Part shown: positions 27,924 to 62,499 of the stretch, piece by piece
Position numbering within the stretch: position 1 is the first letter of the stretch
Layout: each line of letters begins with the position of its first letter
Source of the DNA: an uncultured virus (IMG/VR IMGVR_UViG_3300021400_004213)
Lineage: Duplodnaviria; Heunggongvirae; Uroviricota; Caudoviricetes
Reading direction: 5' to 3' (one strand)
IMG/VR virus record: IMGVR_UViG_3300021400_004213
DNA length: 64,000 nucleotides
The notes under the pieces: model-generated
Seen by the model: only the letters and a program-made list of their open reading frames with translations
The model's database searches: none
Told to the model about the DNA's origin: nothing
Translations under genes and position numbers: made by a program

Positions 27924-27924
27924 A

Positions 27925-29363: not shown

Positions 29364-29418
29364 GCAAAATCCAAATAAAAAAACTTCATTTATGAACCAC
29401 TTTTTTTTCGCAAAAGTA

Positions 29419-29447
29419 TTGACATATGCATCAATTTAATGTAGAAT
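29419..29447 (+). promoter_or_regulatory. sigmaA promoter for the HU gene
   Basis: TTGACA-17 bp-TAGAAT. Confidence 0.8.
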
Positions 29448-29515
29448 AGGAGCATAAAGAAAAGATGGCGGTAATAAGTCAGCCGCCACTAATAAAAAAA
29501 TGGAGGATAACAAAA

Positions 29516-29797: not shown

Positions 29798-29819
29798 TTA
29801 TCACTTTACAGATAGAAAT

Positions 29820-29850
29820 AAGGCCGAGTGCATCAGCACTCGGTCTTTTT
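29820..29850 (+). terminator. intrinsic terminator
   Basis: GGCCGAGTGC-ATCA-GCACTCGGTC followed by TTTTT. Confidence 0.85.
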
Positions 29851-29857
29851 CTTATTA

Positions 29858-30559: not shown

Positions 30560-30587
30560 ATTGCACCTCTCTATAATTATATTATCA

Positions 30588-31979
30588 TCACCAAATAATT
30601 ATTGGTGTATATACATCACGATTTTTAATTACATTGAAAATATAATCTACTGTTTCATATGGTGTATTAATACACCCATGAGAACCATCACTTACATAAA
30701 TATTTCCACCGTAAGATGAACGCCAAGAAGAATCATGAATACCAACGCCATCCAGCGTAACACGAATAAAATAATGACAGAAAGCACTACCATATGACCC
30801 AGTCATGGTATGCTCTGTATACAAATCAGTAGTACGATACATACCTGTTGGAGTTGCACGAGATGGATCATCACGAGTACCCGTGATAACATTAGCATCA
30901 GCCGTACATACACCATTCTCAATAAACCACAGGTGTTGATCATTAATACTAATTTCAACATATGTATCGCCAAAATCGTTGTCTTCTCCATGCGCAACGG
31001 ATTTATAAATCCATGGCACAGTGATTTCCGCGTTGCGACCAGAGCGTAACGCCTCAATCAGCAGGTCATACAGACCAGCATCATCCAAAAGCCAACCAGA
31101 CAAATGACAAACCGTCCTGTTCTCAGATGACACATCATCCAATATTACCGTTTCGCCTGTAGACGTATGGAAAGTACGAGACTGTCCTCTCGTATTATAC
31201 TTCGTACCGAGAGATATAACATATTCCCGCACCTTATCTTCATCAATCGTAAAACGACCATTCACGACATTTCCAATGTCGTTTAGAACATCTTTCGGCA
31301 CTTGGATAGATGTACCATCACCAAGATCCAATTCAATCTGAGTTTCTTTGAAACTACTTGCCTGTTCTTTTAGATTCAATAAATTTTCATCATCTTCTCG
31401 AACATCGGCAAGCGCATAGCAACCATCTTCTAACAAATCGACATCATATGATGCATCAGCAAGACTTGCAACAATTGCATCTTTCAATTTATAAATATCG
31501 ATTTGCGTTCCTATCATATCAGGAACAATCTGATAGTCTCCATCTTCTGTTTTAACTACATATGCATCAGTTGGTGCTAAATTTCCCGCAGAAACACAAC
31601 CCAAACGACTTACTGCATTCAGCAACGTCGTTTCATTATATGACAACGCATTATCCGTTGTATAATAGCGCTCCGTAAAAAACGAAATAGGCCATATAAA
31701 AGGACTTGTCAATTTCGAAGCAGACTGTAAATCACCAACACGTGTAATTCCGAGTTGATCAAAAGTTGCAACTTCAGTTGCACCATCAGGCATATAAATC
31801 GTAACAATACGATTTCTTGTTCGATTGGTCATTTCAATGGATAAATCCATACTCGTCTTATAAAACACATCTTGCCCATCAATATGGTCACCATATAAGA
31901 AATGCCCAGAAAAAACCAAAACACCAGAGAAATAAACAAAGAGCAGACATACTATTAATATCCACCATCGACGCCTCAT
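30588..31979 (-). CDS. membrane-anchored L,D-transpeptidase (YkuD domain)
   Basis: N-terminal TM helix, YVEISINDQHL, TPTG, GIHD, SHGCIN. Confidence 0.88.
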   Translation of the reverse strand: MRRRWWILIVCLLFVYFSGVLVFSGHFLYGDHIDGQDVFYKTSMDLSIEMTNRTRNRIVTIYMPDGATEVATFDQLGITRVGDLQSASKLTSPFIWPISFFTERYYTTDNALSYNETTLLNAVSRLGCVSAGNLAPTDAYVVKTEDGDYQIVPDMIGTQIDIYKLKDAIVASLADASYDVDLLEDGCYALADVREDDENLLNLKEQASSFKETQIELDLGDGTSIQVPKDVLNDIGNVVNGRFTIDEDKVREYVISLGTKYNTRGQSRTFHTSTGETVILDDVSSENRTVCHLSGWLLDDAGLYDLLIEALRSGRNAEITVPWIYKSVAHGEDNDFGDTYVEISINDQHLWFIENGVCTADANVITGTRDDPSRATPTGMYRTTDLYTEHTMTGSYGSAFCHYFIRVTLDGVGIHDSSWRSSYGGNIYVSDGSHGCINTPYETVDYIFNVIKNRDVYTPIIIW

Positions 31980-32101
31980 AAACGACAACCCTCTTTTCCA
32001 TAAAAGACCTAAAAAATAAGCGCCGCCCCTGTCAAATCAAGAGCGGCACTCAGGCGAACTATCAAGCACAAACATGCCGTCAATCGACCATGCCATGTTG
32101 A

Positions 32102-32437
32102 TTACTCACGATCACTATCGCGAACCTTCTTGTTCAACACGTTAGAAGATGCAAACTTCACGACACGATAGTCACGAACAGCACCTTTCTTTCCACCAAA
32201 CTGAACTGGATGTCCCTTATGAAGTTGTGCGTAAAACGATCCAAATCCAGTAAACGCTACGCGATGACCAGCACAAATTAATTCAATTAACTCGTCAATG
32301 CAAGCCTTAAATACCTCTTCGACGGTATACAAATCACGAACAGTTCCATCCTCAGATGGGTACTGCTCGGCTAGTTTTGCTTTTACATTTTCGAGAAATT
32401 TATCTTTATTGATTTTGTCATATGCTTGTTTATTCAT
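32102..32437 (-). CDS. second, divergent HU/IHF-like protein
   Basis: GHRVAFTGFGSF, VVKFASS..L. Confidence 0.75.
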   Translation of the reverse strand: MNKQAYDKINKDKFLENVKAKLAEQYPSEDGTVRDLYTVEEVFKACIDELIELICAGHRVAFTGFGSFYAQLHKGHPVQFGGKKGAVRDYRVVKFASSNVLNKKVRDSDRE

Positions 32438-32552
32438 AATCCAAATACTCTCCTTATCATACAAAAAAATTTGTAGATAAGCGTTGCTCATTCACACACT
32501 CAATCATGTTTTATTCATAAATGAACAAAACGTTTTACCCTCTTTAACAGTC

Positions 32553-34647: not shown

Positions 34648-37600
34648 TTAACTATTCGGACCATCATTGCCATCTTGCAAATCTTCAGGGCCTTTCACAC
34701 CACTGATATCAGGCAACTCACGATGCATTTTCTTACCATCAGTAGGTGCAGAAGATTTCTCTGTATCCGTTACAGGCGCCTCAGCTGTCTTCGTAAAGTC
34801 ATACTTGAAAGTACTACCCTTACCAGCAGCGGCGGCCTTCGCAGCAGGATCAAATCCAGCAGATGTCGAAACATCTTTACCACGGAACGCCTTTACGTCG
34901 CCTTCACTCTCAACAGAAAGGTCCACCGCACTATTTCTAACATCAATAGTGTTATGTACCATACGAGTATCCGATGGCTGAATAGCCTTCATCTCATCGG
35001 CATGACCATCTGCAGCCAATTGCATATTACGACGAATCTGTTCAGGCGCAAACTGATAGCTCGCAGAACCCTCATACAGATTACGTCCTTCCTGTGCCAT
35101 AGAGTTCAACAAATCACGCGCACGACCATCTGTCTGATAATAAGCAAGCTGGTCAACAGGAGATACATACTTACTGATAACCTGCGGATCCTCGATATTC
35201 AACATACGACCATCTGGACCAACCATAGCATCAGCAACACGCTCAACATCTTCGCGGCTCACAGAACCGCCAAGGTCAAGACCCTTCTTATCTTCATGAA
35301 CTTCCATGAATGTCTTAACCCATTCATCACGGGTAGCCTGAATTGGCTTACCTGTACCTCTATCATAAGCCACACGCCAATGAGGAACGCCCTTATCATC
35401 CGTACTCTTCTCCATGGAATAACCACGCCACAAATTACGGATATCAGCGTTTACTTTATCTTCCAGAATCTGAGCCTTTACTGGGTCATGCTTTGCCTGC
35501 AAAATACCCTGCGTTGCCAAATAAGACAAACGCAAACCCGACTCCAAAGCACCCGCATTCGGTTGCTCAGGTTCAAACTCAGACGCCTTATTACGAAGGA
35601 ACGATACCATTCGCTGCGAAACAGCACCCGCATTACCAGTACAATGTGCCTTGATAGCAGTAGATTTCTCGACATCACGAATATTCTGTTGTGTAACCAA
35701 CTGTTCCTCGGAAACCTTAACACTCTCTGGCAAAATACGTCCATCAGCATCATGGTCAGCCGTAAATCCTGCATACTGCATATAAGAATTCAGCTTACCC
35801 ATACTACCTTTTGCCTTATGGTCAACGACCGTAATCAAAGATTGCATTAAAGCTTCAGGACTCTTAAACGACAATGCTTCAGAGCCAACACCCTTGAATA
35901 CATCCTTCGTATAATCAGACAATTCACGCATCAAGTCCTTATTCTTCTGCATACGATCTTCAGCAGACAAAGATGTATCACGATAAACATCATTGTATTC
36001 ACGCTCTAAACGAATACGACGCTCACGAAGCGTTTCAGGCAATGCATCAACAGCACTCTTATATGCATCAGTTCCTTCGCCGTACTGTGCTTTCAACTTT
36101 TCCAAAGTTTCAGCACGACGCTCATTGTCAACTTCCTCATTGGAAATGACATCCATCGAATCGTTGAACATCAGTGCATAATCACCTTGACGGAAACCTG
36201 CAGATGCATCTTTTTCGCCACGAACACGTGAAAAATCAAGCATATTCTGATCAAACGAGAACAGACGATAGGCTTCTTCCTTCGCAGCATCTGTCTGAAC
36301 AGACTGAATAGCAACAGAGTCACCATCGAAGTCACCATCAAACGAAACAGCAATCGCTGGGTTAACAGCACAACCATGAAGTTCAGGATCAACCTTCACA
36401 TCCATATAACGCATACCATACGTACGAAGCAACGGGTCACGTGCAATCAATACACGGTCACCATCTTTCACACCGAGCTTGTCAGACAAACCAGGTGACA
36501 ATGACACTTGATTCAAATCCAAAGATGGATCTGGTGTCCAAACAGCCGTTGCAGACTTCGACATACGACGTGCCATCACAGAATCACGGAACAAATTATG
36601 TTTCGTATCCAAGATACGAGCATATACATCGTCCATGATACCATTATAATCTTGCTGAGCACTCCTCTGAGCATCAGACATTGCTTTACGACATTTCTCT
36701 TTATCAGCATCCGTTCCAGCAGTTGCCAAGTCAGCCTCAGCCTTCAAATATTTAACACCATTCTCATAAATACGCTGATACTGATTCGTATAATCATGCG
36801 TCATCTTCGTACCATCTTCGAATGTCTGTCCACTACGCAAATGCGAGGACATGACAGGTAACGCATACATTGCATGACCATTACGCTCCACACCTTCAAT
36901 CGGCTCTGTCTTCTGAGAAACACCCGTTTCTGGATTCGAAGCCATCTGTTCCAACGGGAACGGAAGTTCCATGAAACCGCCACGGCTACCAACCGTATCG
37001 GCAAACAACTTACCAAGATCTTTCGATTCAATATTAGCCAATGTTGCATCGTCAGGCATATGGAACGGATATCTCTCTTCGCCATTATGTGGCTTATATC
37101 CAAAACGGACATCACCTGTCTCAGAGAAATCCCAACCTAACGTATTCATATATTCACGAAGATTCGTTACTGCAGAACTGTTCGGACCATAATATTCAGC
37201 CATCATTGCAGGAGCGCCTTTAGCTGTCAACATCCAGCCCTGCTGAGCGGAGACCTTACGGCCTTTACCCTGCTTAACATCATCATCGTCATAACTCTTT
37301 GTATGATCTTCTGCTGTATGATGTGTAATCGTTACAGGCATGTAAGCAATACCGCCTTCCACAACACGATCATCAGACAACTTTAAATCTTCATGAGATT
37401 CAAGACCAAACTTCGCAGCAGCCGCATTAAAACGGCTACATGGTGAATATGGAGACTGAACAATATCCAAAGTTGGATTGTTCTTAAACAACTCAACGAT
37501 ATCCGTCAGTCCACGTTTCTCCGCCTCTGCTGGATCCATATTACGGTCTACAACCAGACCAACGATACTCTTGTTACCAGAGCTATCGCAAATCTTATCA

Positions 37601-40600
37601 CCAGGCATCAACGGACGAAGCTTACCATTCTCATCAAGCTGTTGATATTTCTCCGCCAAATCCTTCGAAATAACAGCACCATCATCGTATGTATAACCGC
37701 CGATAGTCAAAAACGCTACGCCAACACCTTTCAGTTTTGTCGTACCATCTTCTTGCTTAACCATTTCCGCACCAGCAATACCCGAACCTGTCATCAAGTT
37801 AGACACAGCCATCTGCTGACGGTCTGCAGGAATATTCGACGCATATTGCATCTCAGGTGCATACATAATTGGAGCACGACCATTCGGATTATCAGAAAAA
37901 TGAGGTGTACCATCAATATTAACACCTGCACCGACCATGAAATAACGAATCGCACCCTGATTCTTACCAGAACCAGACATAACAGGGTCAAATAACCTAT
38001 CGCTATTCTCAGCCGTGATGGCAAAGTTCTTATGACCCAATTCGTTATACCAATCATGACCATTATCATTCGTCAGTTCATGAACAGACACAAAATCACT
38101 GTTCTTTTCTCTCTGAGCAAAACGATATTCAGCATTAACCGATGATTCCTCAATCAATTCTTTCGGAAGATGACAAAGACGACGGTTTGTTTTAAAAATC
38201 AACTGAAGTCGATCCTCAGGCATATTTGTCATAGCCATCTGGCGCAAATATGTCTCTTTCAAACTCTCCTGCTCACCATTCTCCTTCACTTCAGGTTCAA
38301 TCATAATCTTATATCCAGTAGTATATAAGCCACGATAAGTATTATTAATACTCGTTGTCGTACCTGTATGGAGAACCATATCATCTGGAATAGCAGACAA
38401 ATCTGACGGAACATTCTCCGCAACATTCTGAACATCATAACGAATACGATTTTGAATGTTTTCTACCAAAACCTGTGGCAAACCACGGAAACGATAACGC
38501 TCTTCAATGCTCTGACCTGTACCATCGTCAGGTGCAATATACGCATCGTATCCAGGTGTAAACAACTTATTCTTCGAACCATTATAATGGGTCTCTACAA
38601 GACCATATTCATCAGGTTCAAATACCTGTCCAATCTCACCTTGTAAAGGAACGAACTTATTGACATCAGTGCCAACCGCCACCTGTGCATCATAACGAAT
38701 GACACCCATCTTATCAATCTTGATATCATTCGGATCAACCTTACAAGCCGTCTCACGTAACGATGTTACCATCGTATCAAGCACAACACGTAAATACTCA
38801 GATGTCTTGGCTTTCTCAACCAAAGGCTCTGCAGATGCTTCATCAAAACGAAGAAGCTTATCTTGCATCGTTCCTGTCTCAAAATCATTACCAAGTAATT
38901 CTTTACCAGTAAACTCAAGTGTTCTCATCGCAGAAACAAGATTATCCTTATTTCTCGGAACGCCATGAGGACCCTCCATGAACTGTGCGACCAATGACGG
39001 CGAAAAACGCAAACCATCAGCATTTGGCTCAAACTGACCAAACATCATATCAACACTATCACGAAGATGTGCTCTGATATTCTGTTCAGGTGTACCAACA
39101 TACGTATTCTGTCCAGTCAGACTATTATACGATGTTGGAACAGCACTTAATTCGTCATCTTCAATTTCCGAATCAGATTCACGGTCTTCCGTCAGATTCA
39201 TTGACTCAAACAACTCTGCAAACACAGGATCGTTATCTCTAAAGGTCTGACTACCATCTGGCTGATTTAAAGTCAAACGACCACGAAGCACATTCCAATA
39301 AGTAAGCTGTGCAGGTGCGATCGTCGGATCACCAGACAAATCAGGAATATAACTCTCATTTGGATCATCAGGTTCACCGTTTAACGGGTGATTATGATGT
39401 TCCTCAATCAAATGATCGAGATTAATACGCTGCTCAAAATTATCACGAGCTGACGAAATAGCATCACGCAAGAAATCTTCCGCAGCTTCCTTTGTCTCAA
39501 ACATCAAATGCGCATCGCTATGATTATTCGAACTGTTCAAACCTAAGAACATATTGTTCTTAACTTCACGACCCCTTGCATCACGACGTGTCGGATTAAT
39601 AGGATTCTGAACAGTACCAAAGGAAAACTGCATCTCCAGCTTACCTTCAGGTGAACCCTTCTTCGGACGCATGAAAGTAGTACGTTCGTCTTCATTTCCA
39701 GCACCACGAGCACGGCGCGTACTAATCGTACCGACCTTACCACCAGAACTAGACAAACTAGCAGGACGATCTACACTACGCCCCATCGCATAATCAACCA
39801 ACTTAAGCGTATCATCAATTGATGGTGTATACGCATCTCTATCAGCTTTGGAACGAGCAGTCAAATACAAACTATTGCCATCATTGTAAACACGTCCAAT
39901 ATACAAACCATTCTGACGGTCAGTAGCACCAGGCTGACGAGTATCGGTCAAACGAATAGATACCTTTGTTCTATCAATCACAGCCTTCAACTGACCTGGA
40001 TTCGTATCTGGACGAATCGAATATTGCGTACCTGTTTCGTCCAAATGCTCCAAAATAGCAATCGAACGATCCGTCATCTGACGAGTCATACGACGGTCTT
40101 CAGGAACCTGTTCCATCCAGCGACTTGCTTCACGAAATTCCTTATCAGTCATGAAACCACGCAAACGGGACAAACCCGACGCATCAGCAATTGTCGCCAC
40201 AGGACCAGCATTACGCAATTCATAAACACTCGTACGCTCATCAGCTGGAGCTCGACCTGTACCATCTTCCTTACGGAATCTCATCTGTAAGAACTGATCA
40301 CCACGCTGACGTTCTGCTTCGATAGGCAAATCTCTATCCACGAAAACATATTCCATGCGACCATCACGAGAAATCTGACGTGGTACAAACACATCAGATG
40401 GATTTCGATACAAAATCTCCGTACCGTGTTCCAAAATCGTTTCGCGTTCCGCATAACGCTCATCAAAAGGAGAACAAGGAATCACATTATCCGTGCTGAA
40501 TTTCATACCCTCTGTCTTACGCTTAGCCGCTTCAGCTCCTCGCAAAGCAATACCTGTGACATCGACCCATTCAGCCAAATAACTATTGTACTTATCATTA

Positions 40601-40932
40601 AACGCATCAATATCACTATACGTTGCATTGTTCGGGTCTAACGGACTAAAAACCTGTTGAAAAGCTACACGAACCTGACTAGGACGAATCGTATCCAGCG
40701 TACAAGGAATCTGATTTCCTTCAGAATCTAAAACAGGCTCCCATTGTCCTGACGGACCACGACGATCCTGTGCCTGTTGCCCAACAGCATCCAACCATTT
40801 ATCGTGTAACGCTCTACCTTTTGATGCCGAAATATACTCGCCACCAGATTGGCGAACACCAACATTATAGTCCTCTACCATACGAGCAAACACATATTCA
40901 TTCAAATTTGCATTAACATTAAAAACGCTCAT
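34648..40932 (-). CDS. single-chain two-barrel (beta + beta'-like) DNA-dependent RNA polymerase
   Basis: beta-like: DRQQMAVSNLM, GYTYDDGAVIS, PGDKICDSSGNKSIV, DIVQSPYSPCSRFN, HHTAED, GRKVSAQQGWML. beta'-like: RRMSKSATAVWTPDP, VLIARDPLL, NPAIAVSFDGDFDGD, KAKGS, TGNAGAVSQRM, ATQGILQAKH. Confidence 0.88.
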   Translation of the reverse strand: MSVFNVNANLNEYVFARMVEDYNVGVRQSGGEYISASKGRALHDKWLDAVGQQAQDRRGPSGQWEPVLDSEGNQIPCTLDTIRPSQVRVAFQQVFSPLDPNNATYSDIDAFNDKYNSYLAEWVDVTGIALRGAEAAKRKTEGMKFSTDNVIPCSPFDERYAERETILEHGTEILYRNPSDVFVPRQISRDGRMEYVFVDRDLPIEAERQRGDQFLQMRFRKEDGTGRAPADERTSVYELRNAGPVATIADASGLSRLRGFMTDKEFREASRWMEQVPEDRRMTRQMTDRSIAILEHLDETGTQYSIRPDTNPGQLKAVIDRTKVSIRLTDTRQPGATDRQNGLYIGRVYNDGNSLYLTARSKADRDAYTPSIDDTLKLVDYAMGRSVDRPASLSSSGGKVGTISTRRARGAGNEDERTTFMRPKKGSPEGKLEMQFSFGTVQNPINPTRRDARGREVKNNMFLGLNSSNNHSDAHLMFETKEAAEDFLRDAISSARDNFEQRINLDHLIEEHHNHPLNGEPDDPNESYIPDLSGDPTIAPAQLTYWNVLRGRLTLNQPDGSQTFRDNDPVFAELFESMNLTEDRESDSEIEDDELSAVPTSYNSLTGQNTYVGTPEQNIRAHLRDSVDMMFGQFEPNADGLRFSPSLVAQFMEGPHGVPRNKDNLVSAMRTLEFTGKELLGNDFETGTMQDKLLRFDEASAEPLVEKAKTSEYLRVVLDTMVTSLRETACKVDPNDIKIDKMGVIRYDAQVAVGTDVNKFVPLQGEIGQVFEPDEYGLVETHYNGSKNKLFTPGYDAYIAPDDGTGQSIEERYRFRGLPQVLVENIQNRIRYDVQNVAENVPSDLSAIPDDMVLHTGTTTSINNTYRGLYTTGYKIMIEPEVKENGEQESLKETYLRQMAMTNMPEDRLQLIFKTNRRLCHLPKELIEESSVNAEYRFAQREKNSDFVSVHELTNDNGHDWYNELGHKNFAITAENSDRLFDPVMSGSGKNQGAIRYFMVGAGVNIDGTPHFSDNPNGRAPIMYAPEMQYASNIPADRQQMAVSNLMTGSGIAGAEMVKQEDGTTKLKGVGVAFLTIGGYTYDDGAVISKDLAEKYQQLDENGKLRPLMPGDKICDSSGNKSIVGLVVDRNMDPAEAEKRGLTDIVELFKNNPTLDIVQSPYSPCSRFNAAAAKFGLESHEDLKLSDDRVVEGGIAYMPVTITHHTAEDHTKSYDDDDVKQGKGRKVSAQQGWMLTAKGAPAMMAEYYGPNSSAVTNLREYMNTLGWDFSETGDVRFGYKPHNGEERYPFHMPDDATLANIESKDLGKLFADTVGSRGGFMELPFPLEQMASNPETGVSQKTEPIEGVERNGHAMYALPVMSSHLRSGQTFEDGTKMTHDYTNQYQRIYENGVKYLKAEADLATAGTDADKEKCRKAMSDAQRSAQQDYNGIMDDVYARILDTKHNLFRDSVMARRMSKSATAVWTPDPSLDLNQVSLSPGLSDKLGVKDGDRVLIARDPLLRTYGMRYMDVKVDPELHGCAVNPAIAVSFDGDFDGDSVAIQSVQTDAAKEEAYRLFSFDQNMLDFSRVRGEKDASAGFRQGDYALMFNDSMDVISNEEVDNERRAETLEKLKAQYGEGTDAYKSAVDALPETLRERRIRLEREYNDVYRDTSLSAEDRMQKNKDLMRELSDYTKDVFKGVGSEALSFKSPEALMQSLITVVDHKAKGSMGKLNSYMQYAGFTADHDADGRILPESVKVSEEQLVTQQNIRDVEKSTAIKAHCTGNAGAVSQRMVSFLRNKASEFEPEQPNAGALESGLRLSYLATQGILQAKHDPVKAQILEDKVNADIRNLWRGYSMEKSTDDKGVPHWRVAYDRGTGKPIQATRDEWVKTFMEVHEDKKGLDLGGSVSREDVERVADAMVGPDGRMLNIEDPQVISKYVSPVDQLAYYQTDGRARDLLNSMAQEGRNLYEGSASYQFAPEQIRRNMQLAADGHADEMKAIQPSDTRMVHNTIDVRNSAVDLSVESEGDVKAFRGKDVSTSAGFDPAAKAAAAGKGSTFKYDFTKTAEAPVTDTEKSSAPTDGKKMHRELPDISGVKGPEDLQDGNDGPNS

Positions 40933-41081
40933 AATTTTACTCCTTTCCGCTCCTGCACGCGAATGTCAGGATGCGCCCATTTGGGTCATGATATTGAGTA
41001 AAACGAAATATCTCCGTTTCTTAAATAAGTATAATCGAGAAGGAAAAAGAACGCAAGATACTAAAAAATATATCAGAAATG

Positions 41082-41124
41082 AAAAAAGACACCCTGTTGC
41101 ACGCACTACAACAGAATGTCTTTT
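41082..41124 (-). terminator. terminator hairpin inside the roughly 300-nt leader of the RNAP gene
   Basis: Minus-strand AAAAGACAUUCUGUUG-9 nt-CAACAGGGUGUCUUUUUU. The G-U pairs form only on this strand. Confidence 0.7.
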
Positions 41125-41236
41125 CTCCAAGAAAGAGGTAAAAAACAAAAAAAGAACGACCTGACCTGCGGAACACCACCGCACCACACAAAAAGAAAAC
41201 AAGAATGAGCAATTCTTATCCCTATCTGATAGTCAC

Positions 41237-41265
41237 ATCATACCAAAGAAAATACAAAATGTCAA
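41237..41265 (-). promoter_or_regulatory. sigmaA promoter facing the RNAP gene
   Basis: TTGACA-17 bp-TGnTATGAT. Confidence 0.8.
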
Positions 41266-41389
41266 CACAGATTTATTCATTTATGAACACTTACGATTGC
41301 ATGACAACAAATTGAGCATCAGAGCCAATAAAACCTAGTTCATCCACAAAAAATTTTCAAAATCTACTCATTTATCAGATAGAAACATG

Positions 41390-41418
41390 TTGACATTTGC
41401 TTTCCTACCAACTATAAT
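41390..41418 (+). promoter_or_regulatory. consensus sigmaA promoter for the HTH-helicase operon
   Basis: TTGACA-17 bp-TATAAT, followed by AGACTCA twice. Confidence 0.85.
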
Positions 41419-41470
41419 AGACTCAGAAAGACTCAACTTTACTATATTTCGTTAAAGGAGGTATAATATC

Positions 41471-41680
41471 GTGAAAAATGGTACAAGATGTCCATATATG
41501 ACGACATCCGAATTCGCAGAGCGAATTGGAATCCATCCGCAAACCTTGCGTAAATGGGATAAATCAGGTACGCTAAAAGCACACCATAAAACCGCCAGTG
41601 GTCGCCGCTACTACTCGGAAGAGCAAGCGCAGGAATTTTTAAACGGAAATAATCAAGAGGAAAAAACAGACGCGAGGTAA
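41471..41680 (+). CDS. stand-alone MerR/excisionase-like HTH protein
   Basis: EFAERIGIHPQTLRKWDKSG...GRRYYS; AAGGAGGT RBS. Confidence 0.85.
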   Translation: MKNGTRCPYMTTSEFAERIGIHPQTLRKWDKSGTLKAHHKTASGRRYYSEEQAQEFLNGNNQEEKTDAR

Positions 41681-41722
41681 TCGCAATGATTAAAAAATAC
41701 ACAAGAAAGGAGGTAAATCAGA

Positions 41723-43372: not shown

Positions 43373-43476
43373 AAGAAGTGGCATTCGCTTTATATAACAA
43401 CAAATACACTTACACAAGTTATTCCGAGTGCAACACGGATATAACTTCTTACACACAAAGGAGAAAAAGACTCGTT

Positions 43477-43917
43477 ATGATCAATAAAATTGACATTTTT
43501 GACGGCGAACACGCTTTCCTCAGCAACTTCTATCGTGCTGATGTCGAATTTGAAGGCGTCATTTATCCCACAAATGAACATGCCTTCCAAGCCGCCAAAA
43601 CCTTAGACCCGAAAATCAGACAGGAATTCCTCACCGAATGTCCGACTCCTGGCAAAGCCAAACGAAAAGGCCGCCACGTTGACCTTCGACCCGACTGGGA
43701 AAAAATCAAAGTGAACATCATGAGAACCATTGTGCGGAACAAGTTCAACGCACACCCTACGCTCGCAGCAAAGCTTCTCGCTACGGGAGATGCCACTCTC
43801 ATTGAAGGAACTACATGGCATGACCTCTTCTGGGGTATAGACATTACCACAGGTAAAGGTGAAAATCATCTCGGTCAGATTCTCATGCAGGTCCGAAAGG
43901 AACTTCGTCCTAAGTAA
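43477..43917 (+). CDS. NADAR (YbiA-like) family protein
   Basis: FLSNFY, YPTNEHAFQAAK, LRPDWE, KF, LLATGD..LIE, FWG, GENHLGQILM. Confidence 0.92.
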   Translation: MINKIDIFDGEHAFLSNFYRADVEFEGVIYPTNEHAFQAAKTLDPKIRQEFLTECPTPGKAKRKGRHVDLRPDWEKIKVNIMRTIVRNKFNAHPTLAAKLLATGDATLIEGTTWHDLFWGIDITTGKGENHLGQILMQVRKELRPK

Positions 43918-45582: not shown

Positions 45583-45801
45583 ATGAATACCGAAACATTT
45601 GATTCCCACATCTGCCCATACTGCGGCAGCACACGCGTCGGCGTTAAGAAGAGCGAAAAAGTTCGCAGCGTTCAGCGTCAGACCAAATTCTGCCCTAAGT
45701 GCAAGCGTGTATGGTACATTGACTGGCGCAACTTTGAAATGGTTGCAGCAAGTGATGATTCAGGAAATCAACTGTTCAAAGCACCAAAAAAGAAAGGATA
45801 A
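45583..45801 (+). CDS. small zinc-ribbon protein
   Basis: CPYCG...CPKC. Confidence 0.7.
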   Translation: MNTETFDSHICPYCGSTRVGVKKSEKVRSVQRQTKFCPKCKRVWYIDWRNFEMVAASDDSGNQLFKAPKKKG

Positions 45802-46366: not shown

Positions 46367-46801
46367 ATGATTCACTTTGTTCAGGGCGATATGTTCGCCA
46401 CACCATACGATGCACTCGTAAATGCCGTGAATTGCGTCGGCGTTATGGGTAAGGGACTTGCCCTTACCTTCCGAAATAAGTATCCGAATAACTACACGCA
46501 ATACGCACAAATCTGCAAAAGCAAACAACTTCGCCCTGGACAGATTTTCGTGACCGATATTAACGGTCAGACAATCATCAATGCCGCAACAAAAGACCAT
46601 TGGAAAAACCCATCTTACGAAGAATGGGTTATCAATGCAATCGTCCACATTGCCACGTGGCTTATGTTACACCCGTCCGTAAAGACCATTGCCGTGCCAA
46701 AGCTTGGCTGCGGTCTCGGTGGACTTGATTGGAATCGCATCCGTCCTGTCATGGAAGACGCGTTCTCCGATTGTCCGCAGGACATCTATATCTTCGAATA
46801 G
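46367..46801 (+). CDS. macrodomain ADP-ribosylhydrolase (DarG/TARG-like)
   Basis: GDMF, VNAVNCVGVMGKGLA, TKDHW, PKLGCGLGGLDW. Confidence 0.9.
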   Translation: MIHFVQGDMFATPYDALVNAVNCVGVMGKGLALTFRNKYPNNYTQYAQICKSKQLRPGQIFVTDINGQTIINAATKDHWKNPSYEEWVINAIVHIATWLMLHPSVKTIAVPKLGCGLGGLDWNRIRPVMEDAFSDCPQDIYIFE

Positions 46802-46810
46802 GAGACGCCT

Positions 46811-47515
46811 ATGAATGACCCATTCTACAAACAGGACTTAACTGATGAAGTTTGGCCCTATAATCTCATCTTAGAGGTTAAAACTTGTGCTGGAATACAC
46901 ACAAGAAATGATGACGGCACGCCCGTCATGATTATCAAGGACGAACTTCCATCAGATATCGAAGGCACCATTGCCTATCTTCTCTGCAGACTTACTGACA
47001 GAGAACAAAACATGCTTCTTTGCCGCTATAAGGACGGCATGACACTCGAACAGATTGGTCGTGACAATAACCTCACGAAAGAACGTGTCCGCCAAATCAT
47101 CAACAAGACTATCCGCAAGATGAGTCATGGTGCTGGCAGACGCATGATTACCAGCGGACTTCGTAACTATTTCTATGAAACTATACGAAACGAAATGCAA
47201 TCTGAAATCGACCGTGCAAAGAAAGAAGCCTATGCTAACGGTTGGAACTCAGCCTACACTACCAATGACGGAACAAAAGTCGTACCGAAAATCAATAAGA
47301 TGGACAATGTTTCCATCATAGAATTAGATTTATCGGTTCGAACGTACAATGCACTCAAGCATTACGGCATTTGCACCGTCAAAGAGCTCAATGCACTTTC
47401 CGTTGATGAAATCAAAAACATTCGCAACCTCGGTTCCAAATGTTGTGTCGAAATCTTCAACAAACTCACAGACTGTGGCTACGACACCACAGAAAAAGAA
47501 GCTTTGCTTATCTAA
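46811..47515 (+). CDS. sigma70 region-4 / RNAP alpha-CTD fusion protein
   Basis: LTDREQ...TLEQIG....LTKERVRQI (sigma4) and IIELDLSVRTYNALK..GI.TV.EL...IRNLGSKC..EI (alpha-CTD). Confidence 0.85.
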   Translation: MNDPFYKQDLTDEVWPYNLILEVKTCAGIHTRNDDGTPVMIIKDELPSDIEGTIAYLLCRLTDREQNMLLCRYKDGMTLEQIGRDNNLTKERVRQIINKTIRKMSHGAGRRMITSGLRNYFYETIRNEMQSEIDRAKKEAYANGWNSAYTTNDGTKVVPKINKMDNVSIIELDLSVRTYNALKHYGICTVKELNALSVDEIKNIRNLGSKCCVEIFNKLTDCGYDTTEKEALLI

Positions 47516-49171: not shown

Positions 49172-50905
49172 ATGAAACTTCTACCACACAATAAAACTAC
49201 ACTTGCCGAAATAGAAACATTCGACAAACATAACATGAATTGCTGTGTGGTAAATCCATGCGGATCGGGTAAAACTTCCGTAATGGCAGCTTTTATTCAA
49301 CAGCACCCTCGCAATTCATTTACTATCATTACAAAACAAAAAAATGCAAAGAAATACTATCAAGAAAAAGATAAAGTATTTCAAAAAAATAATGTAAATA
49401 TTGTAACGTATAATAAAATGCTTTCCGACTATCGCAAAAAAAATACGGCACAATATAACACAACCTATTTTCTCATTGATGAAGCCCATTACCTTGGTGC
49501 ACCACAATGGAAAATTGCATTTGAATTCTTACAAAACGAATATAAACCCAGAATCATTGGGTTTACAGCAACACCGCAACGATTTGAAGATCAATTTACG
49601 AAGAATGATATCGTAAAAACATTCTTTGATGACAATCGTGCTGGAAATTACACCACAACCGACTTAGAAGCCGAAGGTGTCTTCGTCAAACCAGAATATA
49701 TATTATCCATATACGATTTTCCAACCCTCATGAATAACATGGTTGTAAAAATAAAAACATCTGACTTAGACGAAGATCAAAAACAAAAATTATACACTCG
49801 ATTAGACACAGCTGGAACAAAATGGCGTAACGAATCTATGCCACAAATAGTATTTCAGCATTACATTCCAAAATATCTTTACAAAAAGAACAACAATCGA
49901 ATTCTTGTTTACGTTTCTAATATCAAAGATTTAGATTCAAAGAAAACTTTCATCGATTTATTATTTAAAACACTATTTCCTAAAAAGCATATTGTTTCAT
50001 ATGTATACACATATAAAAATTCAGAAACAGAACTTCAAAAGTTCTTATCCGACGATGAAAGCACAGACATAAAAATACTCTATTCGATTGATAAAATCAT
50101 GGAAACCATTCACATAGATGATCTACGAATCCTCGTTATGCTCAGACCATCCGTGTCTAATCGAATCATCACGCAACAATTTGGTCGAATCAATAGTATC
50201 ACAAATAAAAAGAAGCCATTAATCATTGACATGGTTGATAACTTATCCGTAATCGATACAAATGGAAATCCAAAACGGGATTACACAAAAACTGCCTTCG
50301 ACACGGAATTACCAACAACCAATCAAAATGTTGGCATATCATTGCCTCATATTGCATACTACGCTGACTTATTTGCTACCATTGACAAGACCATATCCCA
50401 AATCCAACGATACACCTATCGCGGATATACAGGAACACTCACCAATATCTGTAAAATATTTGATATTGATATCAACCAACTCAAAGAGTTGCTAAAAACA
50501 ACAATCGATGTTGAAACAGCATTGGATCAATCTCAAACAAAAAAATACAGATTGACACAAGCAATATTCGACATGTCACCGACAGAACGTCATTTTGAAC
50601 TCACATCTGAAGAACAAGATATGGCTCAAAAGAACCTTAATATTGTTGACACATTCATTCAAAACAACAACATAGACGATGATGATTTAAAACAAGAATT
50701 ATATATGGAATACCTTTATGCAATTCATAAAAATAAATCATCAGATACGCCACTAACAATTCGTATTGCAAACGCCTTACGAAACGAATACATTTACTAT
50801 TGTCGCAATAAATTGAGACATGACGAATTGTACACTGAATTACCGCTTGATTGTATTGACGACGAGCCCTCACATGGACCCATACTTCTATGCCATGCAC
50901 AATGA
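49172..50905 (+). CDS. SF2 (DEAH) helicase-like protein with sigma region-2-like C-terminus
   Basis: PCGSGKT, IDEAH, FTATP.R, QQFGR; AT-rich. Confidence 0.75.
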   Translation: MKLLPHNKTTLAEIETFDKHNMNCCVVNPCGSGKTSVMAAFIQQHPRNSFTIITKQKNAKKYYQEKDKVFQKNNVNIVTYNKMLSDYRKKNTAQYNTTYFLIDEAHYLGAPQWKIAFEFLQNEYKPRIIGFTATPQRFEDQFTKNDIVKTFFDDNRAGNYTTTDLEAEGVFVKPEYILSIYDFPTLMNNMVVKIKTSDLDEDQKQKLYTRLDTAGTKWRNESMPQIVFQHYIPKYLYKKNNNRILVYVSNIKDLDSKKTFIDLLFKTLFPKKHIVSYVYTYKNSETELQKFLSDDESTDIKILYSIDKIMETIHIDDLRILVMLRPSVSNRIITQQFGRINSITNKKKPLIIDMVDNLSVIDTNGNPKRDYTKTAFDTELPTTNQNVGISLPHIAYYADLFATIDKTISQIQRYTYRGYTGTLTNICKIFDIDINQLKELLKTTIDVETALDQSQTKKYRLTQAIFDMSPTERHFELTSEEQDMAQKNLNIVDTFIQNNNIDDDDLKQELYMEYLYAIHKNKSSDTPLTIRIANALRNEYIYYCRNKLRHDELYTELPLDCIDDEPSHGPILLCHAQ

Positions 50906-51137
50906 AGTTCACGATAAAATTGAACAACTCTTTGGCATACTTATGCCAAGACAAGCAGGAATTATCAAATTTCGCTATGGATTCATTGATGGCCACGAGC
51001 ATACACTCGAAGAAGCAGGACTTATGTACGATCTCACAAGAGAACGTGTCAGACAAATCGAAGCAAAAGGTCTCAGAATCCTTAGAAATCCATGGAGAAG
51101 CAAATTTCTCAAAGATTATCTAAACGATTATGCATAG
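50874..51137 (+). CDS. sigma70 region-4 domain, possibly the frameshifted end of the preceding gene
   Basis: LMPRQ..IIKFRYG...HTLEEAG....LTRERVRQIEAKGLRILR. Confidence 0.75.
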   Translation: MDPYFYAMHNEVHDKIEQLFGILMPRQAGIIKFRYGFIDGHEHTLEEAGLMYDLTRERVRQIEAKGLRILRNPWRSKFLKDYLNDYA

Positions 51138-58033: not shown

Positions 58034-59692
58034 TTATCCATTATTCACATCTGCGCCCGCTTCAGCATCAGCGTCAGCAGCAACCTCAGCCTCAGCTTCA
58101 GCAGCGGCAGCAGCATCTTCATCTGCTGTATCAGCAGCATTCACTGCAGATGCTTCAACAACCATATCCTCCGTAATTTCATTCACAACACCATAGAATG
58201 CAATGTCCTCATTCTCTGCATCACCAATGTAATACAAGAACGGACGATCACAAACAATGTTAATCACATCGAGATCATCATTGTAATCTACAATAGGAGT
58301 AGATGCAGGAGTCTTCTCCTCAGTCTGACAAACACCGCTATGCGTGATTGACGTCTTCGCAATCTGTGAGAACACAGGCTCAAAAGAAGTAGGCAGACCA
58401 GTCAAAATCTCGCTTAAAACATTGCCAATAGGAAGAGCGAACTGAGACAACTTCAACTGATACATAGATTCAACTGTAAACTCTGGCATATAGAAACGCA
58501 CATGTGCTTTCTTAGACGCCAACTCACCGTTCATCAGTTTCGTTACGTTCACATCTTCCAGCTTTACGCCCTTATTAGGCATAACAACCATCACATAGTT
58601 TCCACCCTCCAAATACATGCAATAAGCATAGGCATTACCAAGATCCCAATAAGTCAGACCTTCATCGCGAAGCATAACAGTCTTCACTTCGCTACCGTCA
58701 GCATTATAGAAGATACGATTCTTCGTATCATAAGCTTTCGGTCCATTCTTCCATCCATCTGACAAATACACAACACTTGTCAAATCAATCTTGGTATCAC
58801 CAGTAAAGAATGACGGAGTATACGGAATATACCCATTTGTTGCATCCGAAACAAACCAATTCTTTTCAGTTGTTGCAGAAGGAGAATTCATATCCACCGC
58901 AGTCAAAAGACCATTCAAACGACTATCTGAACCAACAGTTGGCTTCAAAGACTTATCAACCCAAATATGTCTGATAATCTTCATTGTCTCCGTATCATCA
59001 AACTGTAAATAATCACGATTGATATACTTCTTCAGAACAGCCTTATCAGGCTCGCCAACCATTTCTTCCCACATATCCATTGCAGACAGCAGAGACTCGC
59101 CACTAATTACAGCATTATCTGTACCTGCTTTAGACAGCAAAAACGCCTGATAACGATACCCATTGGTCCCCATTGGATCCAGTTCAGCAACAGTAGGAGC
59201 TTCCGTTGTAGGCTCATCTGATTTCTCTTCCACAGATGGCTCTGTCACAGCAGGATCTTCGGCAGGCTCAGTCGTTTCCTCTTCAGTGACTTCCTTTTCA
59301 ACAAGACCCGCTACAGCATCTTCAATGGCCTTTGCCATAGCATCAACAGCTGCCTGCTCTTCAGGAGCCTTACCTCTAACTACAGCATTTACTGCTTCCG
59401 TCACAACCGCAGCAGTTTCATCTGTATAAATGCTCAAATCAGTCGGAACTTTTAACAACGCCGCATCAACCGCCTCATAATTCGCCTCATCGGACACTAC
59501 AGGCTCCTCTGTTGCACTCGGCTGATTCTGACCGTCACGCTCAGCAAGCTGATCCGATGTCATAATGTTGGTCTTTGCAGGTGTCTTTCCACTTTCTACT
59601 ACACCGCCATTATCTGTCGATGACTGTGAGCCACAAGCAGCTAACGAAAGTGTCATTAAAAGAGCCAACATAAGACACAAAACTCGTTTCAT
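58034..59692 (-). CDS. lipoprotein with serpin-like domain
   Basis: Lipobox LAAC; FYNADGSEVKTVML, VVMPN, MPEFTVE, CDRPFLYYI...FYGVV. Confidence 0.75.
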   Translation of the reverse strand: MKRVLCLMLALLMTLSLAACGSQSSTDNGGVVESGKTPAKTNIMTSDQLAERDGQNQPSATEEPVVSDEANYEAVDAALLKVPTDLSIYTDETAAVVTEAVNAVVRGKAPEEQAAVDAMAKAIEDAVAGLVEKEVTEEETTEPAEDPAVTEPSVEEKSDEPTTEAPTVAELDPMGTNGYRYQAFLLSKAGTDNAVISGESLLSAMDMWEEMVGEPDKAVLKKYINRDYLQFDDTETMKIIRHIWVDKSLKPTVGSDSRLNGLLTAVDMNSPSATTEKNWFVSDATNGYIPYTPSFFTGDTKIDLTSVVYLSDGWKNGPKAYDTKNRIFYNADGSEVKTVMLRDEGLTYWDLGNAYAYCMYLEGGNYVMVVMPNKGVKLEDVNVTKLMNGELASKKAHVRFYMPEFTVESMYQLKLSQFALPIGNVLSEILTGLPTSFEPVFSQIAKTSITHSGVCQTEEKTPASTPIVDYNDDLDVINIVCDRPFLYYIGDAENEDIAFYGVVNEITEDMVVEASAVNAADTADEDAAAAAEAEAEVAADADAEAGADVNNG

Positions 59693-59835
59693 AATATATA
59701 GACCTCCATTTGTAATATCGCAAAATAAATGCATGATTTATCCAACATATATAGAATAGCACAGAAAGATTGATTTATCAACATATTATCTAAAAGAGCC
59801 GTGAAAAGAATTATTCACGGCCCTATTTAGCGCAA

Positions 59836-62487
59836 TTACTCTTCAAGGATATCATCTAACAAACTTGATTCAGACGCATCGTCGTCCTCTGGACTCTCCT
59901 CTTCATCATCAGACGTTTCTTCCTCTTCTGAAACTTCTGGAACGACAAGAGTTTCCTCTTCTTGAACTTCATCCTCAAATTCGTCATCATCCTGCTCTTC
60001 ACAAGGCTCTTCATGAATCGTAGCGACTACATCTGCCACTACACCATTCGGATTACCCGAAAGATTAATCATTCGAGTACCCATCGCCTTTCGTGAATAC
60101 ACAGGTACCTTGTCAATCGGCGTCTTAATAATCTGACCGTTATCCATCATGATAACCAAATCATTGGAGATATCCTCCAAAAGGAACGCCTTACTGACAT
60201 TACCAACCTTATCTTCAGCGGAAGTCTTTACGCAACGATTACCACGAGCGGTACGACCCTTAAACACCGTGAAGTCTTCACAACGAACACGCTTTGCATA
60301 ACCCTTTTCCGTGATAATAATCACTTCTTTACCAAGTTCCTGCTTCTGCATAGCGATAACTTCATCACCCTTAGAAAGAGTGATACCCTTCACGCCACGA
60401 GCTTGACGACCCATCGGACGCACCTTCGCAACAGGATATGCTGCACAATAACCGTGCTTTGTGGTCACCATGACATTATCATCATCCTGAACGACCACTG
60501 TACTACGAACTTCGTCACCATCATCCAGCTTGATCATAAACAGACCATTAGAACGTACATGTGGCAGATTCGACATTGATACACGCTTGATAACACCACG
60601 CTTTGTAATCATCGTCAGATATTTATCTTCCGAATACTCATTCTCAGCAATCATGCCTGTGACAAACTCACCAGGCTGCAACTTAGTAAGAATACTTACA
60701 AGAGCCGTACCACGTGACGTTCTTGCCGTCTCAGCAATCTGATACGCCTTCATAGTGTATACACGACCAAAGTTCGTGAAGAAAATAATGTCAGACAGAA
60801 GGCTTGTTGAAATCATATCTTCGATATAATCTTCAGAAAGTGTTGCCACATGACTACCCTTTCCACCCTTCTTCTGCAGACGGAACGTACCAGGCTTCAT
60901 ACGCTTCAAATAACCGAAGTTAGTACGAATAATGACACAAGGTTCGTCTTCAATCAGGTCTTCCATCGTAATATCGGAATAATCGACCTTATGCTGAGTC
61001 TTTCTATCATCTGCATACTTACGACGAATCTCCTTCAGTTCCTTACGAATCTGCTTCAAAAGAACCTTACGGTTACCCAGCAATTCAGTACAACGAGTAA
61101 TCTCCGCTGTCAAATCATTTAATTCATCGACCAACTTCTGATGTTCCAGACCAGTAAGAGCACGAAGTCTCAAATCCAAAATTGTCTGAGCCTGCATTTC
61201 ATCCAGTCCAAACTTATCCATCAACTTCTGCCTTGCATCATCAGGATCTGCACCATTGCGGACAATATCAATGACCTCGTCGATGTCATTTACAGCAAGA
61301 ATCAAACCTTCGACAATGTGCTTACGTTTCTCAGCCTTTTCCTTCTCAAAGACCGTTCTACGGCCAACAACATCCATCTGATGATCCAGATAATAACGTA
61401 ACATCTGAACCAAATTCAACGTCATAGGATGCCCATCAACCAAGCACAGCATATTGGCAGAAAAACTGCTACGAAGCTTTGTATGCTGAAGCAGATTATT
61501 CATTACCAACTCAGGAATAGCAGACCTCTTTAATTCAATAACAATACGAACACCATGACGATTCGTCTCATCACGAACGTCCACTACATCCAGCTTCTTT
61601 TCACGACAATACTTCGCAATATCTTCAACAAGTGTCTTCTTATTGACCTGATACGGAATCTCGGTGATCACAATCTGCGATTTCTTGCCGACCTGTTCAA
61701 TGTCATAGACACATTCCATGTCGACCTTACCACGACCCGTCTCATAGATATCACGATAATCGCGACCAAGAATGACAGCACCTGTCGGAAAATCAGGACC
61801 CTTTACAATGTCCAAAAGTTCAGAAACAGTCGTTTCTTTATCCTTCAGGTCATTCTCAATCATCTGTACCGTAGCGTCAATAACTTCACCCAGATTATGA
61901 GGCGGAATATTACACGCCATACCAACGGCAATACCCATCGAACCATTCACAAGAAGGTTCGGAAAACGACTCGGAAGAACAGACGGCTCATTCTCTGTAC
62001 CATCGAAGTTCGGAACCCAATCTACAGTGTTCTTATCAATGTCACGAAGCATTTCATCGGCAATCTTTGACATACGAGCTTCCGTATAACGGTAAGCAGC
62101 AGGCGGATCGCCATCCATAGAACCAAAGTTACCATGTCCATCTACGAGCGGATGCCTCAGGTTGAAATCCTGTGCCAAACGAACCAGCGCATCATACACA
62201 CTGGCATCACCATGCGGATGGTAATGCCCAAGCACGTCACCAACAGTGGTTGCGCACTTACGATACGCAGCAGAATGGGTGATACCAGCCTTATACATTG
62301 CGTACATAATACGACGATGAACAGGCTTAAATCCATCACGCACATCAGGCAAAGCACGGTCTGTAATGACAGACATGGCATAGTCAATGAAGTTACGACC
62401 CATAATATCAGGCAAACACACCTGTTCATAATGTGGATCATCTTCATTAATATCAAAAAATGTATTCAAATTCTTTTCATTATCCAT
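59836..62487 (-). CDS. gyrA: DNA gyrase subunit A
   Basis: [29 protein letters not shown], GyrA-box QKKGGKG, acidic tail. Confidence 0.95.
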
Positions 62488-62499
62488 ATCTGACTCTCC

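Follow-up and report, generated by a model that had tools for sequence, protein, structure and literature searches.

What use does a bacteriophage have for a protein that joins two DNA-reading parts of bacterial RNA polymerase (RNAP) in one chain? The question is raised by a gene in a 64,000-nucleotide (nt) stretch of DNA from an uncultured tailed virus (IMG/VR record IMGVR_UViG_3300021400_004213, Caudoviricetes), which we call the window. The gene encodes a sigma region 4 (sigma-4) followed by a C-terminal domain of the RNAP alpha subunit (alpha-CTD); we refer to its product as the fusion protein. These two domains are the best-studied DNA-reading heads of bacterial RNAP and are major contact points for activators. 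Each domain is known, but their arrangement and the family that has it are uncharacterised. The family is large, phage-borne and independent of any phage polymerase. Our preferred reading, held tentatively and with less than even confidence, is that the protein may be a free-standing reader of upstream promoter DNA that redirects or blocks transcription by the host sigmaA enzyme.

The 234-amino-acid (aa) coding sequence (P0001) corresponds to an open reading frame (ORF) at 46811..47515 on the plus strand, and its translation is stop-free. The opposite strand of this interval has many stops and is closed. An earlier note on this DNA had predicted a sigma70 region 4 helix-turn-helix (HTH) and an alpha-CTD in the chain, and had named a Pfam scan in advance as the check on that prediction. 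The scan matched both domains above their curated cut-offs: Sigma70_r4 (PF04545) at aa 58-105 (E 2.1e-12, 46.8 bits against a cut-off of 24.1) and RNA_pol_A_CTD (PF03118) at aa 160-220 (E 9.9e-18, 64.1 bits against 23.8). The objection that no alpha-CTD profile would match thus fell away. The strings quoted in the note were located in the translation, with TLEQIG...LTKERVRQI at aa 78-96, LDLSVRTYNAL at aa 172-182 and NLGSK at aa 206-210. Other weak Pfam matches (DUF7609, 2CompARG at E 0.11 and more) lay below cut-off and were dismissed.

The protein is neither a sigma factor nor an alpha subunit. Sigma70_r2, the region of core binding and -10 recognition, was not found in the Pfam scan, and PDB searches gave no sigma match for the 46 residues before region 4; without a region 2, the protein cannot act as a sigma factor. 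The alpha N-terminal domain (alpha-NTD; PF01193, PF01000) was likewise absent from the Pfam scan, so that the protein cannot dimerise into RNAP as an alpha subunit does. All rpoA models of NCBIfam scored far under their cut-offs (for example, 60 against 277 bits). The generic sigma-70 superfamily model TIGR02937 passes on the sigma-4 alone (46.3 against a cut-off of 42.9), and annotation pipelines would therefore call the protein a sigma factor, a label that is misleading. PHROGs detects the sigma-like HTH alone, with weak matches limited to the HTH: phrog_79, 'anti-termination protein Q-like' (E 4.5e-4), and phrog_36 (E 3.3e-4). Among the Pfam, NCBIfam and PHROG models scanned, none is dedicated to the sigma4-alpha-CTD architecture.

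An AlphaFold2 model was built on 67 family sequences (mean predicted local distance difference test score, pLDDT, 84.8). It begins with a disordered tip (aa 1-9) and a confident helix (17-26), followed by five helices at 50-115. One unbroken helix at 117-153 bears out the helical linker of the earlier note, and a low-confidence hinge (154-157) leads to a five-helix C-terminal domain (176-233). Both folds superpose on their solved counterparts. By structural alignment, model residues 47..116 correspond to E. coli sigma70 537..610 (7mkd_L: Z 10.9, root-mean-square deviation (rmsd) 1.7 Å, 70 residues aligned). Residues 161..229 correspond to B. subtilis alpha 245..311 (1z3e_B: Z 11.9, rmsd 1.8 Å, 67 aligned, 42% identity; TM 0.88 and rmsd 1.0 Å by Foldseek), and residues 162..229 to E. 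coli alpha 250..315. The best PDB sequence matches were C. difficile 7l7b_A (5.1e-10) and B. subtilis 1z3e_B for the alpha half, and B. subtilis SigA 7ckq_F for the sigma half. With aa 1-130 as query, B. subtilis SigA again came first (E 3.8e-8). All 60 of the PDB matches listed for aa 1-130 were primary or group-2 sigmas (SigA/RpoD, RpoS, SigB). The sigma half is therefore a region 4 of housekeeping type and not an HTH of extracytoplasmic function (ECF) or LuxR type.

The recognition helix reads TKERVRQ in the fusion protein and TRERIRQ in SigA, and the fold is shared over sigma70 537-610. Compared with primary sigmas, the fusion protein has no regions 1-3, carries a four-residue deletion in the loop between 4.1 and 4.2, lacks the R599/R603 equivalents and has an added N-terminal helix that starts at a WPYNL motif. 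Compared with RpoA, it has no alpha-NTD but keeps the DNA-contact positions R, N, G and K that the earlier note had pointed out: by structure-based numbering R177, N180, N206, G208, K210 and C211 are alpha 265, 268, 294, 296, 298 and 299, and the first five match RpoA in R265, N268, N294, G296 and K298. The equivalents of C269, R272 (Firmicutes) and S299 are A, H and C in this copy. We take these alpha positions and the equivalents of sigma70 583-589 to be the DNA-contacting ones. The two domains lie side by side on -35 and UP DNA in the ternary complex 3N97 (see also 1LB2 and 1KU7), both chains of which were among our PDB matches, in agreement with the holoenzyme arrangement given in the earlier note. 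In contrast to that complex, the fusion joins the domains in one chain, with sigma-4 first and a 37-residue helix between, and nothing ties it into RNAP. The two domains, the helical linker and the retained R/N/G/K positions are thus genuine features of the protein, well outside what chance would produce.

The first 46 residues had no convincing match among solved structures in either sequence or fold searches. Structure rows that reached this region (3mzy_A, model 12..115, Z 9.3, rmsd 3.7; 7lq4_A; 1rp3_A; 1xsv_B, rmsd 8.7) were rejected because of high rmsd or few aligned residues and because they gained no score over rows covering sigma-4 only. The WPYNL helix might be a remnant of a sigma region 3 helix, which is no more than a lead.

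How widespread is this architecture? When 5.8 billion proteins were searched by a word index, 69 relatives were returned at E<=1e-3; 66 of these carry both PF04545 and PF03118. The nearest were P0002 (93% identity) and P0003 (45%); the others showed 24-39%. On re-scanning, sigma-4 and alpha-CTD were present in all 67 members, with no further Pfam domain except an XRE-type HTH in 11 of the 67. A family profile of the 67 sequences was then run on 1.84 billion cluster representatives. Each of the 150 matches listed carried both modules (all E<6e-58). At E<=1e-30 there were 2789 clusters, a figure to be read as an upper bound, since the alpha-CTD of an authentic RpoA can by itself score as much as 125 bits (about E 2e-31 by our own scaling). 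Members are single chains of about 200-360 aa with sigma-4 ahead of the alpha-CTD, and P0001, at 223 bits, fits this pattern.

Across 177 family sequences the DNA-reading residues were strongly conserved. In the recognition helix E91 was kept in 92% and R92, R94 and Q95 in 96% each (sigma70 E585, R586, R588 and Q589 equivalents); position 90, equivalent to R584, is R in 79% and K here. In the alpha half R177 (R265) was invariant at 100%, and N180 (N268), N206 (N294) and G208 (G296) were kept in 94%, 98% and 99%; the K298 equivalent is K in 64% and R in 24%, and the S299 equivalent is kept in 85%. The equivalents of alpha 259/261 are acidic in 81% and 92% of the family and that of sigma70 R603 is R in 59%. 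We take these residues to be those that let both domains touch on DNA, as in 3N97, so that contact positions and the pairing of acidic patch and arginine are largely kept. Other near-invariant positions were L61, R64, E65, R102 and K103, and in the alpha half S175, V176, Y179, C181, L182, R184, R205, S211, E214 and G223. The N-terminal motif, [YWF]-P-[YF]-N-L, was conserved as well (P16 96%, N18 95%, L19 86%). Its distance to R94 is 63-64 residues in the commonest forms (median 64) and 78 here because aa 26-43 are inserted, whereas the distance from R94 to R177 equals the family median of 83. Family linkers are rich in E (15%), K (10.5%) and L (10%). An N-terminal extension of at least 40 residues was present in 117 of 170 members; in the 11 scanned members noted above it is the XRE-type HTH.

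The carriers appear to be phages. Neighbours in the ESM Atlas were clusters of the same architecture, mostly labelled Viruses/Uroviricota (taxa are known for few members), and weak BFVD matches included 248-257-aa phage proteins named 'DNA directed RNA polymerase subunit'. Phages also hold proteins made of alpha-CTD alone and alpha-CTD arrays. In a Clostridia sample the fusion was detected in 1 of 301 genomes, which is a floor (E<=1e-40, nine candidates scored per genome). A scan of genome contigs with the family alignment was uninformative on cellular carriers: the best 80 loci matched in the alpha-CTD alone and were true rpoA, and four longer matches (L046, L050, L063, L070) were ordinary RpoA of 315-318 aa. 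As a separate observation, alpha-CTD-like domains that belong neither to rpoA nor to the fusion family were seen in a 716-aa frame (G007:C84:21074-21289) and a 494-aa frame (G009:C1:1005806-1006000) of two Bacillota genomes. No close relatives of P0001 were found in the IMG/VR scan, and the metagenome scan gave distant relatives only, besides the window's own contig (L103).

At the level of strains, a 4.9-kb stretch around the fusion gene was present in whole or in part in 20 public runs from 13 studies, which by their records sampled animal gut. A contig from one run (X2; roughly 97% identical) spans 46303-51200 with 159 differences from the window, 28 of them listed within 46811-47269. Codons 1-116, which cover the N-terminal motif and sigma-4, contained 14 synonymous and 2 non-synonymous changes; linker codons 117-153 contained 1 synonymous and 9 non-synonymous changes. 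The sigma-4 half of the gene is under purifying selection. P0002 and P0001 differ at five positions within aa 166-234. Contigs from one RNA library (X17) cover 46303-47038 in three pieces, and those from another (X20) cover parts of the Macro and helicase genes only; DNA carry-over is possible in both.

What might such a protein do? We propose that the protein would bind DNA directly, its sigma-4 contacting a hexamer like TTGACA and its alpha-CTD the minor groove of A/T-rich (UP-like) DNA close by; judging by linker composition, the helix may make the protein a dimer. It would then compete with or redirect host sigmaA holoenzyme at promoters that depend on -35 and UP elements, in the early-to-late phase of infection. 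The outcome could resemble that of T4 AsiA or phage G1 gp67, reached by imitating the DNA-reading heads of the polymerase and not by binding them. We favour this reading because the DNA-reading residues, and in large part those for contact between the domains, are kept in both halves of a family that diverges to about 25% identity. The purifying selection on the gene, the stacking of DNA-binding heads in relatives and the sigmaA-type promoters of the window (Table 1) speak for it as well.

Several points weigh against it. Isolated sigma-4 binds -35 DNA weakly, so that avidity or a partner would be needed. TTGACA was not enriched in the intergenic DNA of the window (7 occurrences on both strands against about 6 expected), and a k-mer search of the window's upstream regions returned ribosome-binding-site words only and no shared target word. 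This copy also departs from the family consensus, with K90 for R and S105 and G109 at the R599/R603 equivalents in the sigma half, and A181 for C, H184 for R and C211 for S in the alpha half. The WPYNL helix is conserved yet unaccounted for by a DNA-reader model. Finally, the window encodes a second, helicase-linked sigma-4 (Table 1), and the existence of such helicase-sigma4 fusions would agree equally well with a sigma-4 in the fusion protein that docks on the RNAP beta-flap and does not read DNA.

Table 1. Position and basis of the features discussed in the 64,000-nt window
Feature	Position	Strand	Basis and remarks
2093-aa single-chain RNAP-like protein	34648..40932	-	RNA_pol_Rpb1_2 E 5e-9, aa 1486-1557; SFDGDFDGD metal-binding motif
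sigmaA-type promoter TTGACA-17-TATGAT	41237..41265	-	11/12, with TG; faces polymerase gene
sigmaA-type promoter TTGACA-17-TATAAT	41390..41418	+	12/12; heads block containing fusion gene
MerR-type HTH ORF, 69 aa	41471..41680		
NADAR gene	43378..43917	+	3 kb upstream of fusion, same block
Macro-domain protein	46367..46801	+	Pfam Macro E 1.4e-15; PHROG 335; 9-nt gap to fusion
Shine-Dalgarno AGGAG	46800..46804	+	6 nt 5' of ATG; overlaps stop codon of upstream Macro gene; read from sequence
sigma-4/alpha-CTD fusion coding sequence (P0001), 234 aa	46811..47515	+	family profile match in six-frame window, 223 bits
N-terminal motif W-P-Y-N-L, codons 15-19	46853..46867	+	start of helix 17-26, pLDDT about 81-84
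sigma region 4 (4.1 + 4.2), primary-sigma type, aa 47-116	46949..47158	+	Pfam, structural alignment, PDB matches
recognition helix T-K-E-R-V-R-Q, aa 89-95 (sigma70 583-589)	47075..47095	+	alignment to SigA TRERIRQ
linker, single long helix (37 residues), aa 117-153	47159..47269	+	AlphaFold2; fastest-changing part
alpha-CTD (helix-hairpin-helix), aa 161-229	47291..47497	+	Pfam; 1z3e_B; R177, N180, N206, G208, K210
ResIII/Helicase_C helicase with primary-sigma-like region 4	49172..51137	+	split into ORFs 49172..50905 and 50820..51137

The helicase-sigma4 gene lies 1.6 kb downstream of the fusion gene. The DNA that follows helicase ORF 49172..50905 encodes ...TRERVRQIEAKGLRILRNP, and ORF 50820..51137, in another frame and overlapping the end of the helicase ORF, is a Sigma70_r4 match (E 3.2e-13). 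A protein of 654 aa with 98% identity to the window helicase (P0210) reads through the frame break after ...DDEPSH, and one letter at 50876 is absent from the contigs of three other runs (two DNA libraries and one RNA library). The window gene is thus a helicase-sigma4 fusion with one extra base near 50876, which arose from an error in assembly or else marks a break particular to this strain. The C-terminal 91 residues of B. subtilis SigA were matched by the sigma-4 of P0210 (aa 560-650; E 8.7e-19). Among 114 helicase relatives at E<=1e-10, most of 640-715 aa, 96 carry PF04545; the helicase-sigma4 family, with at least 96 clusters of this architecture, is without a name in the sources examined. 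No close relatives of P0210 or of the helicase-sigma4 alignment (A3) were found in the IMG/VR scans. Only two family-profile matches were present in the window, the fusion and the sigma-4 of the helicase-sigma4 gene.

The two genes are connected by larger relatives. P0110 (1034 aa) and P0074 (1075 aa), both among the best family-profile matches, combine ResIII/DEAD, Helicase_C and Sigma70_r4 with two to three alpha-CTDs. The window helicase matched P0110 at E 1e-35, and the second sigma-4 of the window is 46% identical to P0110 675-739. P0210, P0110 and P0074 share the primary-sigma-type region 4 of the fusion protein, and P0110 and P0074 also its order from sigma-4 to alpha-CTD; unlike the fusion they begin with a ResIII/Helicase_C motor (about 360 aa), continue with a middle region of roughly 300 aa and lack WPYNL. 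Other relatives stack heads further (P0072, P0073, P0075, P0104 group): three Spo0A_C with sigma-4 and three alpha-CTDs (1003 aa), ten alpha-CTDs (1031 aa), an SNF2 helicase with three alpha-CTDs (1361 aa), and four alpha-CTDs with sigma-4 and HARE-HTH (983 aa). An XRE, sigma-4 and alpha-CTD architecture was also seen.

These helicases bring in a second explanation, in which the fusion protein would be a polymerase-docking factor. Its sigma-4 would bind the beta-flap tip of host RNAP, displacing sigmaA region 4 or riding the elongating enzyme; an extra alpha-CTD would be added and promoter use, pausing or termination changed, as by a late activator or a Q-like antiterminator. Primary-sigma region 4 docks on the RNAP beta-flap, as T4 gp33 does, and the sigma-4 found here is complete (4.1 and 4.2, sigma70 537-610) and of primary-sigma type. 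A docking handle would also be natural on a helicase or translocase, for which RapA offers an analogy, and sigma-4 is C-terminal in the helicase family (96 of 114), a member of which lies so close downstream. In temperate phages that carry relatives, the gene has replication genes on one side and late genes on the other, a place typical of late activators and Q-type factors; the weak phrog_79 match may point the same way. Against docking, the DNA-reading residues of sigma-4 are kept at 92-96%, although a module that served for docking alone could do without them, and the N-terminal helix may cover the flap-binding face. Architectures with many DNA-binding heads are easier to explain by avidity for DNA than by attachment to one site on the polymerase. 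We regard the docking explanation as rather unlikely, though as the main rival of the DNA reader.

The genomic context of the relatives bears on a further proposal. Full-length family members were found in 10 IMG/VR records, two of them identical, so that nine of the loci are distinct; the contigs measure 11-166 kb. The genes around them are those usual in temperate siphophages (integrase, Ant, Erf/RecT, replication initiator, RusA, ArpU-like activator, terminase). The fusion lies beside an integrase in L084; beside Ant, Erf, an exonuclease, RusA and a DnaD-like loader in L086; and beside RecT and a replication initiator in L085. In L082 an SbcC-like nuclease precedes the fusion, which is followed by an ArpU/RinA-like activator, the small and large terminase subunits and the portal; in L089 terminase and portal are 3.5 kb downstream. 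L082 and L086 have a separate phrog_36/248 activator gene besides the fusion.

The earlier note had suggested that the protein might serve as promoter-recognition factor for the element's own RNAP, which lacks alpha and sigma, and had looked to co-occurrence with that single-chain enzyme across genomes. The candidate is the 2093-aa protein (Table 1), whose gene is 6 kb from the fusion gene and which showed weak similarity to largest subunits in the PDB around aa 1437-1591 (best E 1.7e-4). Phage multisubunit-type polymerases use specificity subunits of their own, two sigma-4-bearing proteins are encoded in the window, and no gene for a sigma region 2 or an alpha-NTD was found among the window ORFs. 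The fusion could then act as specificity subunit of the 2093-aa enzyme, possibly together with the helicase-sigma4 protein. The occurrence of the family spoke against the suggestion: neither a relative of the polymerase nor a PF00623 match was found in any of five fusion-carrying phage records, two of them rated 100% complete, in a search that detected the control in 14 of 14 genomes. The family thus occurs mainly in phages without such a polymerase. Its sigma-4, moreover, resembles host SigA, and the lack of TTGACA enrichment noted above counts against this role too. A specificity subunit for the phage enzyme seems to us very unlikely. Close relatives of the catalytic part of the polymerase were not found in the IMG/VR scan, and helicase-sigma4 was absent from the same five records (0/5), the sole match being the sigma-4 of the fusion itself. 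An elaboration in which the fusion and the helicase-sigma4 protein would supply -35/UP reading, and perhaps opening or loading, to the 2093-aa polymerase as a 'split holoenzyme' is likewise a long shot; if true, it would be a case of a virus rebuilding bacterial promoter recognition from separately encoded modules.

The note's other suggestion, a decoy or appropriator of host RNAP, appears to fit better: the sigma-4 is of primary-sigma type and consensus sigmaA promoters occur in the window. Both promoters (Table 1) are within a divergent control region at 40933..41722, and from their consensus matches the polymerase gene and the fusion-containing block look to be transcribed by host sigmaA. 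An A-rich stretch upstream of the 41390 promoter (about -77 to -62) was considered as an UP element and set aside as too far upstream for a canonical one. The control region also contains a terminator-like hairpin at 41127-41081 on the minus strand.

The fusion gene is part of a co-directional block (41471-54043) in the order MerR-type HTH, primase (41723), NADAR, three unknown genes, Macro, fusion, unknowns, helicase-sigma4, radical-SAM and ThyX (52875). The Macro gene is probably co-transcribed and translationally coupled with the fusion gene. A 72-aa cysteine-rich zinc-ribbon protein (45583..45801, plus strand; Pfam Cys_rich_KTR E 9.1e-6) is encoded three genes upstream of the fusion.

This neighbourhood has a bearing on the decoy in its strict form, in which free copies of sigma-4 and alpha-CTD would soak up Spx-type binders, anti-sigma factors, defence proteins or ADP-ribosyltransferases that act on the alpha-CTD. 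Macro and NADAR families remove ADP-ribose, and their genes lie 9 nt and 3 kb upstream of the fusion; alpha R265, the residue modified by T4 Alt/ModA, corresponds to R177 here. In the structure search the alpha-CTD came closest to that of B. subtilis as bound to Spx (1z3e_B), and the tandem alpha-CTD and Spo0A_C arrays of relatives could be sponges. The Macro/NADAR neighbourhood, however, was seen in the window only and in none of the nine related phage loci, and a protein decoy does not require strict conservation of DNA contacts in both domains. We consider such a sponge improbable.

A general DNA-binding or architectural role with no link to initiation, in which the protein would assist in replication or recombination or bring the nearby helicase to DNA, has the gene's company in its favour: it lies within blocks of replication and nucleotide metabolism both here (primase, helicase, ThyX) and in relatives (RecT, Erf, replication initiators). 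The alpha-CTD-only proteins and arrays of phages are in keeping with it. Helix-hairpin-helix domains related to the alpha-CTD also occur in Rad51-type proteins, as seen in the structure search. A primary-sigma recognition helix kept almost letter for letter points instead to a specific -35-like target, and we think an architectural role quite improbable.

The window as a whole, taken from a 114-kb source contig, looks like part of a very large phage. It encodes SNF2 and UvrD helicases, a clamp loader, NrdD/NrdG, a ClpB-like ATPase, a D5-type primase, ThyX, gyrase A/B and a tail lysozyme; no tRNA was found in it. Cellular-type cargo was seen at 23337..31988: a MazF/PemK-like toxin (23337..23771), an M50 site-2 protease with PDZ (24270..25544), GNAT, TraX (26976..27743), SecY (27925..29307), DUF1963 and a YkuD L,D-transpeptidase (30588..31988). 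Beyond it are genes for an HU-like protein (32102..32491), for a serpin-domain protein (58034..59734), which is also unusual cargo, and for the gyrase subunits GyrA/GyrB (59836..63996).

T4 AsiA-MotA and gp33 and S. aureus phage G1 gp67 are products of early or middle phage genes that act on the corner of the initiation complex where sigma-4, the alpha-CTD and UP DNA meet. The fusion protein is phage-encoded as they are and would address the same corner; entries of gp67 with sigmaA region 4 (4G6D) were among its PDB matches. The T4 and G1 proteins bind the host sigma-4 or flap and are unrelated in sequence, whereas the fusion is a copy of the host domains themselves. In the main texts of the literature searched, including a jumbo-phage survey (PMC7824862), neither a natural sigma4-alpha-CTD fusion nor a natural helicase-sigma4 fusion was found to be described.

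Current pipelines would mislabel the fusion protein as a sigma factor or polymerase subunit. Together with the helicase-sigma4 gene in the same phage it makes a concrete two-gene system, and it would be a natural tool for probing -35/UP recognition. A phage family in which both heads have been excised and joined, with their contacts kept, would, if our reading is true, represent a new form of viral takeover or silencing of host promoters.

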